Shown piece by piece: positions 4,812-64,000 of a stretch of DNA of 64,000 nt. Position 1 is the stretch's first letter; each line of letters begins with the position of its first letter. The notes beneath the pieces were generated by a model. It worked only from the letters and a program-made list of their open reading frames with translations. It did no database searches and had not been told where the DNA came from. Both the position numbers and the translations under genes were made by a program. This stretch comes from Paraburkholderia sp. (lineage in GTDB: Bacteria > Pseudomonadota > Gammaproteobacteria > Burkholderiales > Burkholderiaceae), in NCBI RefSeq assembly GCF_026225065.1, contig NZ_JAMFSB010000023.1:32556-96555 (forward strand), read 5' to 3'.

Positions 4812-5969
4812 TCAAGCGTGTAGTACGAGCTTCTGCACCCGCCAGTTCAACAACTCTGCGACGAACAGCGTGTTCTCCGATGGGCAAGCCATCTGGTGAA
4901 TCCAGCCAAACTGCTTCAGTTGCTTGCCGGATTTGCCGAGCACGCCCAGCACCTTGCCGTCGAGCGTGAGCTTGTAAATGCGCCCAGGGAAGGCGTCGGA
5001 ACAGTACAGCACCTGGTTAGGGCCCGGAGAAATGGCGATCGTCCAGGGCGAGCCAGGGGCGAATGTGCCCGCGGCGATGGCCGCTTCATCGGGCGCATAG
5101 CCGATAGCGGGCCTTGCATTTGGGGGCACCGGCACGTCGATGGTGAACTGGCGCTGGAAGTTGCCCTCGCCGTCGAACACCTGGATGCGTCGGTTGCTGC
5201 GATCGGCCACATAGACACTGCCGTTCGCATCTAACGCGATGCTGTGCGGCGTATGAAACTGGCCTGGGCCCGTGCCGCGCTCGCCCCACGACTTGAGCCA
5301 GTTGCCGTCTTTGTCGACCTTGGCGACGCGCGAGTTGATATAGCCGTCGCTGATATAAGTGTTGCCGGCGGCGTCCCACGCCACGTCTGTCACCTGCCGG
5401 AAGCGGCCGGGCTCCGCCGGCAGCGGCGGGTTCGGATGCTTGAGCGGACCGGTGTCTTCGTCGGCCGCTTCCTGTTTGCGACCGAACACCATCGCGACGC
5501 GTCCTTCCGGGGTGAACTTGATCACCATGTCCGAACCTTTGTCCGTCACCCAGATATTGTCGTGAACATCGACCTTGACGGAGTGCGCAAACGACCACGC
5601 ATACAGGTTGCGGCCAATCTCGCGGATAAAGCGGCCGTTCGGTGCGAACTCAAGCAACTGGGCCGCCGCCGCTGCATAGGCTGGCCCGCTGCTATTGCCG
5701 CGCGAAAGTACGAAGATGTGGCCTTTCGAATTGAGCGCCACGCCCGAGCACTCGCCGAAGTACATATCGATCGGCAACTTCACCGGGTCGGGAACCGAGT
5801 CGTAAGCAATGGTCGGAACCGTGGCTTCCGTTTCCGCGTAACCAAAGCGAGGCATCAGGGCAAGCGCTGCGGCGCCCTCGCCTGCCAGCGCCAGGAAGCG
5901 GCGCCGCGTGACGGAGCGTTGCTGCAGATCCCCACAACATGGACAGGATTCCGAATGACGGTGGTTCAT
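4812..5969 (-). CDS. Tat-exported peptidyl-alpha-hydroxyglycine alpha-amidating lyase (PAL)-like NHL-repeat protein
   Basis: TRRRFL Tat motif; NHL repeats; SDGYINSRV, PHSIA and ADRSNRRIQ motifs. AGGAGG RBS precedes ATG 5969. Confidence 0.85.
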   Translation of the reverse strand: MNHRHSESCPCCGDLQQRSVTRRRFLALAGEGAAALALMPRFGYAETEATVPTIAYDSVPDPVKLPIDMYFGECSGVALNSKGHIFVLSRGNSSGPAYAAAAAQLLEFAPNGRFIREIGRNLYAWSFAHSVKVDVHDNIWVTDKGSDMVIKFTPEGRVAMVFGRKQEAADEDTGPLKHPNPPLPAEPGRFRQVTDVAWDAAGNTYISDGYINSRVAKVDKDGNWLKSWGERGTGPGQFHTPHSIALDANGSVYVADRSNRRIQVFDGEGNFQRQFTIDVPVPPNARPAIGYAPDEAAIAAGTFAPGSPWTIAISPGPNQVLYCSDAFPGRIYKLTLDGKVLGVLGKSGKQLKQFGWIHQMACPSENTLFVAELLNWRVQKLVLHA

Positions 5970-58857: not shown

Positions 58858-60399
58858 ATGAAATTACTGAAGACAAAGATCGCAGCGGGCATTTTCTCCA
58901 TCGTTTCGGCCATCGGTATCGCTCAACCTGGACATGCCGAAGACATGTCGCGGGACAGTGGCGCGCCTATCGGCGACAACCAGAATTCCCAGACCGCGGG
59001 TCCTGACGGACCCGTCCTTCTGCAGGACTCGAATCTCATCGAGAAACTGCAGCGCTTCGATCGCGAGCGCATTCCGGAGCGCGTCGTCCATGCACGCGGC
59101 ACCGGCCTCTTCGGCGAGTTCGTTCCCACCACCGACATCAGTTCGCTGACCACCGCGAAGGTGTTCACGCCAGGGACAAAGACCCCGGTCTTTGTTCGCT
59201 TCTCGACCGTGATGGGTTATCGCGGATCGCCCGAGCAAGCCCGCGACCCCCGCGGTTTCGCCATCAAGTTCTACACGCAGCAAGGTAACTGGGACATGGT
59301 CGGTATCAACTGGCCGGTCTTCTTCATCCGCGACGCGATCAAGTTCCCGGACTTCGTGCATGCGAACAAGCCGTCAGCTGTGACAGGTGTGCAGGATCCG
59401 AACCTGGCCTTTGACTTCTTCGCCCACACGCCGGAAGCAACGAACATGTTGACGCACCTCTACACCGATGAGGGGATGCCTGATTCATACCGCCACATGG
59501 ACGGCTTTGGCGTGCATGCGTTTAAGTTCGTCAATGCCCAAGGGGAAGTTCACTACGTGAAATTCCATTGGAAGAGCCGTCAGGGTATTGAAGGCATTCG
59601 CCCCCAGGATATTCCGCATTCAATCGGTGCGGACTGGAATCTGATGACGGACGATCTGTATAACTCAGTGAAGGCACATTCGTATCCTCAGTGGGACCTC
59701 TACATCCAGGTGCTTTCGCCGAAGGATCTGAACAAGTTCGACTTCGATCCACTTGATGACACGAAGGAATGGCCGTCGACGATCCCAGAGGAGAAGGTCG
59801 GAACCATGACGCTCAACCGCATTCCGGACAACTACTTCGAATCCACGGAAGAGTCGGCGTTCGCACCGTCGCGCCTCGTGCCAGGAATCGAGCCTTCCGA
59901 GGACAAGATGCTGCAGGGACGCCTGTTTGCCTACGCCGACACGCAAATGTATCGCCTGGGAGCGAACTACAACGATCTGCCGATTAACCGTCCGCTCGCC
60001 CCGGTGAACAACAACAACCAGGACGGCAAGATGAACTACGGCGATCGCAAGGGTGAAGTGAACTACGAGCCCTCCAGCGTCGGCGAAATCTCCCAGCAGG
60101 CCAGGTACAAGTACGTGCAGACGCCGGTCAGTGGCACGACCCAGCAAACGGCGATCCACAAGACACTCGATTTCCGTCAGGCTGGAGAGTACTACCGGAG
60201 CTTGTCCGACACCGACAAGGCGGACCTGATCACTGCATTGTCGGGCGACCTTGGCCGCGTGACCAACGACACGAACAAGTACACGATGCTGTCGTACTTC
60301 TATAAGGCCGATTCGGACTACGGTGCTCGCCTTGCGCGCGCAACGAACGCGGACGTGGCCCGCGTGCGCGATCTCGCGTCCCATCTGAGCGATAACTGA
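58858..60399 (+). CDS. katB: Exported monofunctional haem catalase (KatB/CatF type)
   Basis: Signal peptide; FDRERIPERVVHARG, VRFSTV, RDPRGFA.KFYT and proximal RLFAYADTQ motifs. Confidence 0.95.
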   Translation: MKLLKTKIAAGIFSIVSAIGIAQPGHAEDMSRDSGAPIGDNQNSQTAGPDGPVLLQDSNLIEKLQRFDRERIPERVVHARGTGLFGEFVPTTDISSLTTAKVFTPGTKTPVFVRFSTVMGYRGSPEQARDPRGFAIKFYTQQGNWDMVGINWPVFFIRDAIKFPDFVHANKPSAVTGVQDPNLAFDFFAHTPEATNMLTHLYTDEGMPDSYRHMDGFGVHAFKFVNAQGEVHYVKFHWKSRQGIEGIRPQDIPHSIGADWNLMTDDLYNSVKAHSYPQWDLYIQVLSPKDLNKFDFDPLDDTKEWPSTIPEEKVGTMTLNRIPDNYFESTEESAFAPSRLVPGIEPSEDKMLQGRLFAYADTQMYRLGANYNDLPINRPLAPVNNNNQDGKMNYGDRKGEVNYEPSSVGEISQQARYKYVQTPVSGTTQQTAIHKTLDFRQAGEYYRSLSDTDKADLITALSGDLGRVTNDTNKYTMLSYFYKADSDYGARLARATNADVARVRDLASHLSDN

Positions 60400-60462
60400 G
60401 GCGTACCGGGCCTGCGCGAGCAGGCTTCCGCTTCCTGAATATGATTCCCGATGGAGAATGCA

Positions 60463-61077
60463 ATGCGAGGTTTTTCTACCGTGCAGCGGATGGTTCGCAC
60501 CGCAGCGGTTGCAGCCATAGCCGTGCTGTTGATGGCCAGTTGTGCGCAGCACATGTATCTGTCGGGAACGTACTCGGGCGCAGCTGACGCGCCAAGGTAT
60601 ACCGACGACTGGTTTGCCGCTGCGCGTGCCGGGCGTACCGATATCGTGCAGTTGTTGGTCGACGCCCATTTTCCCCTCGAGACGAAGACGTCTGAGGGCT
60701 ACACGGCGCTCATTCTCAGCGCTTATGACAATCATCCGGACACGCTAAAGGCGCTGCTCGCTGCGGGTGCCAATGCATGCGCTGCCGATCAGCACGGCAA
60801 TACGGCTCTCATGGGCGCGCTTTTTAAAGGGGAGACGAACATTGCGAACATGCTGATCGACACGCATTGCAATATCGATCAAACCAACAACGCAGGGGAA
60901 ACGGCACTTTCGTTTGCCGCGCTGTTCGGCCGCCTCGATATGATTCCGGTGCTCGTGGCACACGGCGCGAACGTCAACCACGTCGATGCGCGCGGAGGGA
61001 CCGCGCTGCAAATGGCCCTCGCGCAACGCAACACGTCTGCAGCGGACGCACTACGCCTGGCGGGCGCGATACAATGA
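60463..61077 (+). CDS. ankB: Ankyrin-repeat catalase accessory protein (AnkB), probable lipoprotein
   Basis: LMASC lipobox; GYTALIL, GNTALMGALFKG, GETAL and GGTAL repeats; directly downstream of katB. Confidence 0.88.
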   Translation: MRGFSTVQRMVRTAAVAAIAVLLMASCAQHMYLSGTYSGAADAPRYTDDWFAAARAGRTDIVQLLVDAHFPLETKTSEGYTALILSAYDNHPDTLKALLAAGANACAADQHGNTALMGALFKGETNIANMLIDTHCNIDQTNNAGETALSFAALFGRLDMIPVLVAHGANVNHVDARGGTALQMALAQRNTSAADALRLAGAIQ

Positions 61078-61200
61078 ACGCACTTGCCGTACCGGAGCGC
61101 GTCGCGTGGCGCAGTGCCAGCGAACCGCGCCCGTTTCTTCGCGCCGCGCAGTGGCAGCGAACCGAGCCCGTTTCAGCAAATTAGATTTGCACCAGAAACA

Positions 61201-62154
61201 ATGGACTATTTTTCGGCGGTACACGCTTTCGTTCGTGCAGCGGAACTGCAGAGCTTCAGCAAAGCTGCACGTGAGATGACGGTCAAGACCTCAACCATCT
61301 CGCGGTATGTGAGCGACCTTGAAAAAGATCTTGGCATCGCCCTCTTCAATCGCTCGACACGGGGTCTCGTGCTGACAGAGGGCGGCAGGGTGTTTCGTGA
61401 GCGCGCGATCCTGGCACTCGAGGCACTCGATGACGCCAGGCAGGCCACGTCGTCCCTGAATAGCACGCCGCAGGGCCTGCTGCGCGTGACGATGCCATCC
61501 GCATTCGGGCGCCGGCACGTCGTGCCGCACCTTCCAGCATTCATGACCCGGTACCCGGACATTGACCTCGACCTCGTGCTGACCGGCGAGACCCTGAACA
61601 TGATTGATGCTGGGATTGACTTAGCCATTCGCATCGGCGTCTTGTCCGACTCATCATTAATGGCCAGACGTCTCGCACCCCATCGGCGCATCGTCTGCGG
61701 CAGTCCGAAATATTTCGATCGAAACGGTATGCCGTCTGTCCCTGCTGATCTTGAGGCTCATGAATCACTGCGCCTGTCGCTGCCGCCCGCTGACAAGTGG
61801 TTTCTCACCCGCGCGGGAAATCCCAAAGCTGCCTTGGAGCAGACACTCATCGGATTGAAAGGCCGGTTGCGTGGAAACGACTCCGAGGCTGTGCTCGACC
61901 TCGCGCTTTCGGGATGCGGTATCGCCCTCCTGCCGACCTGGCTCGCGGGCACAGCCCTACGCGAAGGGCACCTGATCCACGCCCTCCCCGAATGGGAAGC
62001 ACGCACAGGCAAGGCCGAACCAGCTATCTGGGCGGTTTATCCGCCGAAGAAGATCGTGTCGTCGAAGGTGCGTTCGTTTGTCGACTTCTATGCAGAGGTG
62101 ATCGGCGAGCCGCCGTACTGGGACGACGGACTCGCACTGGAGCTTCAGCCTTAA
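61201..62154 (+). CDS. LysR-family regulator (CrgA-like)
   Basis: SFSKAA..STISRYVSDLEKDLGIALFNRSTR; KVRSFVDF..PPYWD. Confidence 0.93.
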   Translation: MDYFSAVHAFVRAAELQSFSKAAREMTVKTSTISRYVSDLEKDLGIALFNRSTRGLVLTEGGRVFRERAILALEALDDARQATSSLNSTPQGLLRVTMPSAFGRRHVVPHLPAFMTRYPDIDLDLVLTGETLNMIDAGIDLAIRIGVLSDSSLMARRLAPHRRIVCGSPKYFDRNGMPSVPADLEAHESLRLSLPPADKWFLTRAGNPKAALEQTLIGLKGRLRGNDSEAVLDLALSGCGIALLPTWLAGTALREGHLIHALPEWEARTGKAEPAIWAVYPPKKIVSSKVRSFVDFYAEVIGEPPYWDDGLALELQP

Positions 62155-63095
62155 CGCGCGAAGCGGATGTCGAGCGTGCGCAGCCAGGTCTGCAAGCCGG
62201 CATCCTGGATCGGAATCACATAAGCGTTTTCGTTCGTTTCATTGAAATGCGCATGCCAGTATCCCGGCGGCGTGACAAACGCCATCCCCGCTTCCCAATC
62301 GACGCGTGTCGGATCCGCGATATTGCCGTTCTCGTCCAGTTCGGTACCCACCAGCGTATAGACGCCGGGGGCGCCCCCAGCGATGAAGTCGAGTGCGATC
62401 GACTGGTGGCGGTGCGGCTTCTGAATCGAGTTGGGCGGAACTATGCCGAACATGGCCCACAGCACGTGCGTGACCGTCCGCGTTTGCGGGAAGTTGACAT
62501 TGCCCATCAGCACGCTGATGCGGTTGCGGCGCCCCGCATTGGCTTCTTCTGCGACCTTGCGCAATTCCGCCTGCGCCTGGGCGGCCGGATAGAGCGTCGG
62601 CGCAAAGCGCGCCTGGACGCCGGTCGTACCCAGATAGGTGAGCAGCGGGGCGTCGTTGACGTAATAGAGCGTGGCCGTCGCGTTGGCGGACAGCACAGTG
62701 TCATCGCCACCCGGCAGCGTGAAGAAATCGCCCTTCGCAAACGGGAAGCGGGTCTCGCCCTGCGTCACGCTGCCCGTCCCGCTGATGACGTAGCAAAGCT
62801 GCGAGGTGGCGTTCGGGGCGAGCGTCAATGCGTCGCCTGCGTTGATGCGCAGGAAATTGGCGCTCAAGCCTGGACCGGTCGCAGGACTGGGGCAACCCAG
62901 TTCCGCGGAAAGGTCGAGCGGCACGACTCGAGTGGCGCCCTCTGCGTACAGCGAAGGCGGGAAATTGCGGAATGGCACGCGCGAGATCAGCTTCGCGCCA
63001 ATCGGATTGGCTGATGACGTGTACTCGAAGTATTCGGCGTCCTGGTTTGCGGCTGCGGTTTCGACAAGGTCCGGTGAGAGCGTTTTGGTTAACAT
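62151..63095 (-). CDS. Bicupin, gentisate 1,2-dioxygenase-like
   Basis: C-terminal cupin QKPHRHQSIALD...TPPGYWHAHFN..PIQDAG (three His ligands). Confidence 0.8.
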   Translation of the reverse strand: MLTKTLSPDLVETAAANQDAEYFEYTSSANPIGAKLISRVPFRNFPPSLYAEGATRVVPLDLSAELGCPSPATGPGLSANFLRINAGDALTLAPNATSQLCYVISGTGSVTQGETRFPFAKGDFFTLPGGDDTVLSANATATLYYVNDAPLLTYLGTTGVQARFAPTLYPAAQAQAELRKVAEEANAGRRNRISVLMGNVNFPQTRTVTHVLWAMFGIVPPNSIQKPHRHQSIALDFIAGGAPGVYTLVGTELDENGNIADPTRVDWEAGMAFVTPPGYWHAHFNETNENAYVIPIQDAGLQTWLRTLDIRFAR

Positions 63096-63466: not shown

Positions 63467-64000
63467 CTACTCAAGGAAAAGTTCTCCATGGAACCCATTG
63501 ATCTGAACCGCCGCCTGATTCTGCTGACGTCCATGGTCAGCGCATTCGCACCTGAGATGGCGCATGCCAGTCCGATCGACGCCCATGAGACATTCGTGCT
63601 GCCGCGAGAACAGATCACTTTCAAGCCGTGGACAGCCGGCCCGCCACACAGCGGCGAGATCACGCCATGGACGCAAAAGATAACTTTGGTCAGCGTGAGC
63701 GGTTTGCGGGGATCCGGGCAGGCGGGGCGGCCCTCCGCTTCCGCCGGCTGGTCGCGTGGCGGTGGGAATCGAATGGCGAATGGTGATGCGGTCATCGGCG
63801 ACCACCACCTCCTTCACGAGCAGTCTCGTGATGCGCTGGCGGTCCTGAACATCGAGGGTCGCGGCACTGCTATGCAAGCGCCCCAGGAACGCCGTTAGCG
63901 TTTCCGCCAGGCGTAGGTAAGCCGCCTGGTCGACCAACCGGGCACTGAGCCCGCGCAACTCCTCCTGAAGACTCTGCTCGCGTTGCCGCAGCGCAGGCAT
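63467..64000 (-). CDS. C-terminal part of a large serine recombinase (recombinase family protein); begins beyond the right edge
   Basis: Coiled coil (MPALRQREQSLQEEL...YLRLAETL.AFL.RL) followed by RQRITRLLVKEVVVADDRITIRHSIP, typical of LSR C-termini. After SYLLR the ORF reads on into host DNA. Confidence 0.75.
   Translation of the reverse strand: MPALRQREQSLQEELRGLSARLVDQAAYLRLAETLTAFLGRLHSSAATLDVQDRQRITRLLVKEVVVADDRITIRHSIPTATRPAGGSGGPPRLPGSPQTAHADQSYLLRPWRDLAAVWRAGCPRLESDLFSRQHECLMGVDRTGMRHLRCECADHGRQQNQAAVQINGFHGELFLE
63488..63660 (+). pseudogene. 5' part of an exported (RR-signal) protein gene, probably cupin-like, disrupted by a mobile element
   Basis: AAGGA RBS; MEPIDLNRRLILL...AHA-SPIDAHETFVLPREQITFKPWTAGPPHSGE. 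After about 63660 the frame runs into the antisense of the recombinase gene. Confidence 0.6.
63660..64000 (-). mobile_element. End of a serine-recombinase integrative/transposable element
   Basis: The LSR C-terminus abuts and interrupts a host gene. The junction is inferred near ...GGCGAGAT|CACGCCATGG (+ strand). Confidence 0.65.

Follow-up and report, generated by a model that had tools for sequence, protein, structure and literature searches.

Transposition driven by large serine recombinases (LSR) is known, and the described systems with which the element reported here can best be compared are the transposons Tn4451/Tn4453, with the recombinase TnpX, and Tn5397, with the recombinase TndX. 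The element has a length of 2.25 kb and begins near the end of a 64,000-nucleotide stretch of Paraburkholderia sp. DNA (the whole stretch is hereafter called the window), where it interrupts a cupin-like gene. As in Tn4451/Tn4453 and Tn5397, a LSR is its only plausible transposase, its ends resemble its target and the expected chemistry is a conservative cut-and-paste via a circle with a 2-bp crossover; in addition, the catalytic domain of TnpX is a detectable relative of the element recombinase. The present element departs from these transposons in its far smaller size, its lack of cargo, the long and perfect palindrome of its joined ends and its insertion in both orientations. It also differs from Tn4451 and Tn5397 in its crossover dinucleotide, which is not GA but variable (AT, CT, GC, GT), in its target, which is one coding motif of another mobile element, and in its recombinase open reading frame (ORF), which crosses the circle junction.

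The serine integrases that act in conserved genes (SPbeta SprA/spsM, A118/comK, Bxb1/groEL1, XisF and CcrAB) have the same domain composition of Resolvase, Recombinase and zinc ribbon, and those of phages and islands likewise integrate site-specifically into coding sequence and show similarity within the inner attachment (att) sites. The nearest solved structure is that of SPbeta SprA (E 2e-11), while the scores against the NCBIfam equivalogs XisF, CcrA, CcrB and CcrC, from 50.8 to 107.7 bits, lay far below their cut-offs of 375 to 900. In contrast to the phage and island integrases, the target of the present element is multi-copy, cross-phylum and part of a selfish element, and the element itself has the size of an insertion sequence (IS), reaches up to 12 copies per genome and has no fixed polarity. 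The IS607 family is also IS-sized and driven by a serine recombinase; however, its TnpA is small, with an N-terminal helix-turn-helix (HTH) domain and little target specificity, whereas the LSR studied here binds DNA by its C-terminal-side domains. Membership in IS607 was rejected given this architecture and a score of 32.9 bits, confined to the catalytic domain, against the cut-off of 110 of NCBIfam NF033518. The strategy of landing in a conserved sequence of a different selfish element, which offers a safe and widespread site, is shared with the IS1111-attC elements (in integron attC), the Tn402 res hunters and the group II introns found in IS or terminators, which differ in enzyme class; the present target is moreover a protein-coding catalytic motif of a retroelement.

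The family was not described in the full-text literature searched, which covers only a minority of subscription journals, and no description of the target and gene layout of the element was found there. Taken as a whole, it is highly probable that the element is an intact minimal LSR transposon that targets the reverse transcriptase (RT) of group II introns and that the copy in the window is an off-target insertion.

The target of the element family

A scan covering one genome per prokaryotic species revealed at least 505 stretches that encode a relative (505 of the 600 pattern-matched stretches listed), and the loci analysed were the best 80 of them, with recombinases 62-92% identical. They belonged to Burkholderiales, other Proteobacteria, Acidobacteriota, Gemmatimonadota, Verrucomicrobiota and others, and the element was often multi-copy in a genome. 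The element ends were located by an ungapped inverted-repeat search and then by a fuzzy anchor, and 140 ends had sufficient flank. In about half of the loci, the flank that follows the recombinase-side repeat reads G-V-(I/L)-S-P-L-L-A-N..., and elsewhere it reads the reverse complement of G-T-P-Q-G-G. Altogether, the RT motif PQGG|V(I/L)SPLLAN adjoins 121 of the 140 ends, with 63 N-side and 58 C-side flanks. With off-target sites judged by motif class, several of the remaining 19 ends were internal end-motif repeats or degenerate RT-like variants (GTGQGSVI) and a few were non-RT sites.

The identity of the interrupted genes was confirmed by Pfam, since all ten flank ORFs submitted matched RVT_1. 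Their breakpoints were nearly constant: the five upstream pieces broke off at 127/128 of the profile and the five downstream ones began at 124. The domain GIIM was present in three of the five downstream pieces, and HNH additionally in one. In the RefSeq annotation of two complete plasmids, of cultured Mesorhizobium and Bradyrhizobium elkanii, an RT domain protein is followed by a CopG ribbon-helix-helix (RHH) protein, a recombinase family protein and a protein with a group II maturase or RT domain. Both relative orientations occur, and the annotation gives the element no name. The register of insertion was fixed, the anchor lying 15 nt from the GG codon and 13 nt from the S codon in 45 of the 46 loci with two flanks, and the orientation of insertion was 23:22. 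If the six bases that separate the GG from the SP codons are numbered as positions 1 to 6, the element ends supply GTG (positions 1-3) on the C-side and C+ACGCC (position 6 onward) on the N-side.

Introns of one and the same kind were found both empty and occupied within a genome. The complete metagenome-assembled genome (MAG) of a member of the Pseudomonadales has 12 copies of the element, and one intron family with 12 copies there comprises six intact and six occupied members, with insertions in both orientations; the empty site of the intact intron is CAG GGT GGT GTG ATC TCA CCC. An Acidobacteriota MAG has about 20 copies of an intron, of which ten were read, nine being intact and one occupied. 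No empty site was found for two further interrupted introns of the Pseudomonadales MAG or for the intron at locus L072, each half of which is single-copy in its genome. The natural target of the family is thus the RT motif of the group II intron, as the preliminary description of the window had anticipated when it proposed RT genes as the usual targets and expected their enrichment among homologous elements.

The window copy has the features of this family: a size of about 2.2-2.3 kb, an RHH gene together with a LSR, terminal repeats of the form ...TTTTGCGT-N6-(C/A)GTG and a recombinase ORF that is open at the element end. Its recombinase is 92% identical to that of its closest relative, L002, which is inserted in an RT gene. 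The window copy itself does not lie between the PQGG and SPLLAN codons of such a gene.

Some loci deserve separate mention. Two copies in the Pseudomonadales MAG (OY762456.1), L094 at about 2.505 Mb and L104 at about 1.764 Mb, have chimeric flanks: one combines the N part of a single-copy intron with the C part of the 12-copy intron, and the other is its reciprocal. From their flanks, these chimeras look like the products of a reciprocal exchange between element copies, which would amount to a large element-mediated chromosomal rearrangement. The flanks of L096 (at about 1.957 Mb in the same MAG), L032 (Nitrococcus mobilis) and L063 (a Methylocystis MAG) contain no recognisable RT and are possible off-target insertions; the site of L096 is still motif-like (TTCCACAAAGGTGTTGCCGA...). 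At L024, positions 5600-5700, tandem end motifs, a partial one and then a full one, adjoin the N-side flank of an RT, which suggests a nested or abortive second insertion.

The window copy and its off-target site

The preliminary description drew attention to the peptide HGVISPL, read from the minus-strand codons CAT GGC GTG ATC TCG CCG CTG at window positions 63653-63673 (plus strand CAGCGGCGAGATCACGCCATG), and considered that it spanned the junction between element and host gene in a frame unlike that of the recombinase. Both points were borne out. The terminal inverted repeat starts at 63660, the identity of the empty alleles of relatives with the left flank stops at ...GGCGAGAT, and the recombinase frame at the junction reads ...PWRDLAAV (...SYLLRPWRDLAAV). 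The string therefore crosses the junction instead of lying wholly inside the element or the host gene, with CCATGGCGTG contributed by the element and AT+CTCGCCGCTG by the host, the partition given at the outset. The proposal that the att site mimics RT coding sequence was likewise upheld, since the joined ends, GGCGTG-NT-CACGCC, can be superimposed on the target consensus GGN-GTG-ATC-TCN-CC.

The interrupted gene is represented in the window by a 5' fragment of 57 codons on the plus strand (63488..63660), which ends with the AT crossover dinucleotide and is delimited by the ORF list, the contig overlap described below and intact orthologues (...PPHSGEMAPLYGDVNKPG). Its other, 3' half lies at an end of another contig of the assembly, C79; this end and that of the contig bearing the window (C348) overlap by exactly 127 nt. 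The host protein, whose ORF begins at 63488, is not an RT. It had been called a cupin; Pfam gave no match for it, and the name stands as a lead from language-model features, which fall in cupin clusters with scores of 0.90-0.92.

Five empty alleles were found, two of them in genomes of the same genus, with flanks 96 and 88% identical to the window, and three in other metagenomes of soil or peat. The two same-genus alleles read ...CAC AGC GGC GAG ATG GCG/GCA CC..., that is, HSGE-M-APLYGD, and the three metagenome contigs join the left flank of the window directly to its right flank; the core of the empty alleles is GGCGAG-AT-GGCGCC. The continuation HSGE-M, rather than HSGE-I, had been predicted and is thus present in two related genomes and three metagenomes. 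It must be noted that the residue at the insertion point is variable (M, S, T) among distant paralogues of the host protein and, therefore, only close orthologues are informative in this respect. With the empty alleles known and a host protein that is not an RT, the window copy is an off-target insertion of an RT-targeting element, at what the preliminary description had already taken for a pseudo-site.

Read in antisense, this target, GGCGCC-AT-CTCGCCGCTG, matches the RT consensus at 12 of 12 positions between 4 and 15 and shares with it 8 of the 12 positions conserved on the N-side. A target profile was built from 115 distinct RT flanks and the genome was scored over 12,837,202 positions. 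The reconstructed pseudo-site ranked in the top 4 when the profile spanned -12..+21 and in the top 8 for -5..+15; for -17..+33 it fell to within the top 2,202, a drop which confines the mimicry to a core of about 34 bp. The best site of the genome was in the RT of its one detectable group II intron (contig C244:9412-10104, locus L127). Rfam models of group II domains D1-D4 match upstream of this RT, which has 598 amino acids and matches RVT_1 with 140 bits but not GIIM; its PQGSVLSPMLAN site, centred on CT, is intact.

The probable source run is a root-nodule metagenome, in which the depth of the element was 21-24 compared with 10.9 for the flank, about twofold. In the same metagenome, the recombinase end was also joined to the N-side flank of an RT (..AGTPQGSV) that is absent from the MAG. 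The same element, therefore, also occupies a canonical RT target in the source sample, and this explains the break of the contig at the element. In this run, unitig breakpoints were observed at L001 2187-2246 and 4433-4464 (L001 being the locus formed by the tail of the window and the further contig DNA), with depths of 7.9, 16.8 and 23.7 at the recombinase end and of 20.9 against 16 at the other end. These values suggest three different junctions of one element in the metagenome, one of them with a base other than A at position 4.

Element anatomy and the recombinase gene

The assembly has 450 contigs; the one that bears the window, C348, continues for only 1,908 bases past the window end. 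The preliminary description had advised recovery of the adjacent DNA, and the full recombinase gene and the second junction were indeed obtained from these remaining bases. Coordinates beyond the window are given as window equivalents, which correspond to the L001 coordinate + 61444. The whole element has 2,248 bp, made up of 2,246 bp (CACGCC...GGCGTG; L001 2217-4462, to window equivalent 65906) and one crossover dinucleotide, and it is single-copy in the assembly. The part contained in the window occupies 63661..64000 on the minus strand and the rest lies beyond; the contig ends at 65908. A repeat search revealed terminal inverted repeats of 29 nt with 100% complementarity. The recombinase-proximal one, TCACGCCATGGACGCAAAAGATAACTTTG (63660..63688, partner at L001 4435-4463), also encodes the final element-borne residues of the recombinase, QSYLLRPWR, and the second (65879-65907, L001 4435-4463) is located at the last bases of the contig. 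The crossover dinucleotide is AT at the recombinase-end junction (63659..63660), in agreement with the empty target and with the family geometry, and AG at the far junction (65907-65908).

The gene content is limited to one recombinase ORF and one small HTH/RHH ORF, both on the minus strand. The element-encoded part of the recombinase comprises 559 codons with no stop inside the element (63662-65338, L001 2218-3894), of which the 3' part is in the window (63662..64000), supported by Pfam and open at the element end. Pfam assigned it the domains Resolvase PF00239 (6.4e-33, residues 8-155), Recombinase PF07508 (3.6e-22) and Zn_ribbon_recom PF13408 (1.4e-10), which identify the protein as a LSR, and its N-terminus, ...AIYARVSSDQQ, has the R-V-S-S motif. 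The HTH/RHH ORF, of 109 amino acids (65470-65799, L001 4026-4355), is 45% identical (E 4e-28) to its counterpart in the copy from the Mesorhizobium plasmid, which is a Pfam RHH_1 protein annotated as CopG family. The end motif (ATTACCTTTTGCGT) recurs some 70-80 nt inside the promoter-side end in three relatives, L008 (about 1368), L050 (about 220) and L056 (about 215, minus strand), and this internal copy may be an extra binding site of the recombinase.

The recombinase ORF had no stop before the element end in all 68 elements (68/68). When the element was circularized in silico, the frame gained 31-32 codons in nearly all copies and ended in a conserved ...LDLR-basic C-terminus, with ...VLDLRRKR as the consensus and ...VLDLRHKK in the present lineage; the tail of the window copy was of the same type as in L002 and L003. 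The tail residues F21, F23, E24, R25, R31, D37, R39 and K41 were invariant or nearly so beyond the mirror of the inverted repeat, while third codon positions were free, with 32 distinct sequences, a combination that indicates selection on the protein. Given that the stop-less ORF is completed only across the joined ends, a full-length gene exists only in the circular form, which in turn argues for a circle. In the window copy, the conserved tail of 31 residues is replaced by 64 codons of host-gene antisense, read through in the recombinase frame before a stop (63467..63661, minus strand; ORF 63467..64000, minus strand, L001 2023-3894).

Other ORFs of the window lie near the insertion. A 513-amino-acid ORF with catalase-like motifs (..RERIPERVVHARG..), followed by a 208-amino-acid ankyrin-repeat-like ORF (58858-61077), was noted by eye, and we take the two to resemble the catalase-ankyrin gene pairs. 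They are accompanied by a putative LysR-type regulator-like ORF (61084-62154) and, directly upstream of the interrupted gene, by an ORF of 314 amino acids on the minus strand (62151-63095) that encodes a putative two-domain cupin (..GYWHAHFNE..).

Crossover, mechanism and alternative explanations

Positions 4-5 were identical at both junctions in 25 of 45 loci (AT in 14, CT in 4, GC in 4 and GT in 3), and in 7 loci they were the sole shared bases; position 3 differed in 21 loci and position 6 in 27. The palindrome that arises when the ends are joined, GGCGTG-NT-CACGCC, is likewise centred on positions 4-5 and, on both grounds, the most plausible place for strand exchange is the first and second base of the I/L/V codon. 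In serine integrases, the central dinucleotide sets the polarity of integration; here, attP is a palindrome and in many cases has AT or GC, itself palindromic, at its centre, which accounts for insertion in either orientation. In classical LSR such as those of phiC31 and Bxb1, recombination is not completed across mismatched central dinucleotides. This identity was not kept in the two cases with known empty sites, nor in 20 of the 45 loci. The first case is the window copy, with AT at the recombinase end and AG at the other, the target being AT; its closest relative, L002, has CT, the reverse complement of AG, at both junctions. The second is L073 (Acidobacteriota), with the target CCA-CT-G; there, the N-side junction of the occupied copy is CT and the C-side junction is TT, and the sister copy L074 also has TT at the same end. 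A difference at position 4 only was seen in 13 further loci, some of them with chimeric flanks. We infer that the exchange tolerates a mismatch at position 4, with the T at position 5 invariant.

A mechanism can be proposed on this basis. The element would excise as a circle, whose joined ends would form a near-perfect palindromic attP, with GGCGTG-NT-CACGCC in the middle of its two arms of about 29 nt. Its 14 innermost bp mimic the DNA for G-V-I-S/T-P of the RT motif B/RT4 (PQGGV(I/L)SPLLAN), and the recombinase would exchange strands at positions 4-5. Such an attP would permit entry into the RT gene in either orientation. Insertion splits the intron-encoded protein, so that the element behaves as a parasite of retroelements. 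A mismatch at position 4 would be tolerated and, after replication, one junction would keep the dinucleotide of the target and the other that of the element. The full-length recombinase, with its conserved tail of 31 amino acids, would be made from the circle only and may act as a built-in switch between integration and excision, with the HTH/RHH protein possibly as a regulator. In this regard, we put forward as a tentative proposal, less probable than its negation, that the tail-less (or flank-fused) enzyme of the integrated copy and the full-length enzyme of the circle, possibly together with the HTH/RHH protein, set the direction of excision and integration without a classical directionality factor, and that a match at one central base, the T that does not vary in I/L/V codons, suffices for the enzyme, which copies the remaining base from the target. 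If so, this state switch and one-base requirement would allow one element to invade RT genes of any codon usage and in either orientation.

Several observations weigh against the overall interpretation, in whole or in part. The RT of L127 is the best-scoring site of the genome, yet the assembly shows it intact and free of the element. Coding constraints of the RT dominate the target profile, and so the profile does not reveal which bases are actually read by the recombinase. No joint of the circle was found in the assembled contigs (not reads) of four runs in Logan, contigs being uninformative either way. Additionally, some of the 20 loci in which positions 4-5 are not shared have chimeric flanks derived from rearrangement between copies and, for this reason, the tolerance of a mismatch is argued mainly from the two cases with known empty sites. 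In both of these, the differing dinucleotides (AT/AG in the window and CT/TT in L073) could have arisen by point mutation after an integration that needed identical dinucleotides. This explanation has the support of the stalling of phiC31 and Bxb1 recombinases on mismatches, known from textbooks, and of the matching dinucleotides in 25 of 45 loci, and we assign it a minor though appreciable probability. It requires, however, an independent change of the same base in two cases, and in each of them the deviating dinucleotide recurs in a related copy, AG in the nearest relative (L002, CT/AG) and TT in the sister copy (L074). The 13 further loci that differ at position 4 only also speak against it, as do the breakpoints in the unitigs and the assembly graph, which suggest the same AG in a second copy of the source sample.

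The remaining alternatives are much less probable. A crossover at an offset GA dinucleotide, as in TnpX and TndX of Tn4451 and Tn5397, would make the window copy free of mismatch: GA is in register in attL (GGCGA-GA-TCACGCC) and in attR (GGCGT-GA-GGGCGCC), and TnpX is related in its catalytic domain. It predicts, however, an empty site GAG-AGG (HSGE-R), while all five empty alleles have GAG-ATG; many relatives have no GA in that place (GTG-CT-G, GTC-AT-C) and position 6 differs between the junctions in 27 of 45 loci, so that the GA offset was rejected as very unlikely. It is less likely still that the recombinase cassette belongs to certain group II introns, as a native part or as cargo in their domain IV, instead of invading them independently. 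Its almost exclusive presence inside intron RT genes would agree with this and, were RT supplied in trans, the intron might in principle carry it along. Nevertheless, the cassette splits the RT ORF at a motif of the catalytic core and does so in both orientations (23:22), it has perfect inverted repeats of its own, it resides in numerous unrelated introns, both those that have GIIM or HNH and those that do not, and it is also found at non-RT sites, including the cupin-like gene with its precise empty allele. The coexistence of identical introns with and without the cassette in the same genome further indicates that it is not a native part of them. Finally, the preliminary description had conceded that the match of six codons could be due to chance, in which case GVISPL would belong to an ordinary LSR element unrelated to retroelements. 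There is a single copy, in a non-RT gene, GC-rich DNA abounds in strings similar to GGCGTG and TCGCC, and several unrelated sites of the genome score similarly over the 21-bp core. That reservation can nonetheless be dropped, its probability being negligible: the same motif stands in the same register at 121 of 140 ends of related elements, the flank ORFs are RVT_1 in every case submitted, and intact and occupied copies of the same introns coexist. The observed string is far beyond chance.

As regards the significance of the intact RT-targeting LSR transposon that we favor, the window contributes an off-target insertion with a documented empty allele, a genome-wide rank of the pseudo-site and evidence on the mismatch of the central dinucleotide. 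Unlike the copies in RT genes, this natural off-target event delimits the sequence needed (a core of about 34 bp) and exposes the mismatch. The family is an example of a serine recombinase targeted to a protein-coding consensus across phyla, and a compact LSR with a target of 30-40 bp, a palindromic attP, orientation-free insertion and an apparent tolerance in the central dinucleotide is of interest for genome engineering. It would constitute a widespread class of DNA transposons that land in the catalytic motif of the RT of another selfish element, in hosts that include Proteobacteria, Acidobacteriota, Gemmatimonadota and Verrucomicrobiota, as well as actinobacterial plasmids and the symbiosis plasmids of rhizobia. 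Copies of the element would also cause chromosomal rearrangements between one another. The element may limit or reshape the populations of group II introns, one of which had half of its copies in a genome knocked out.

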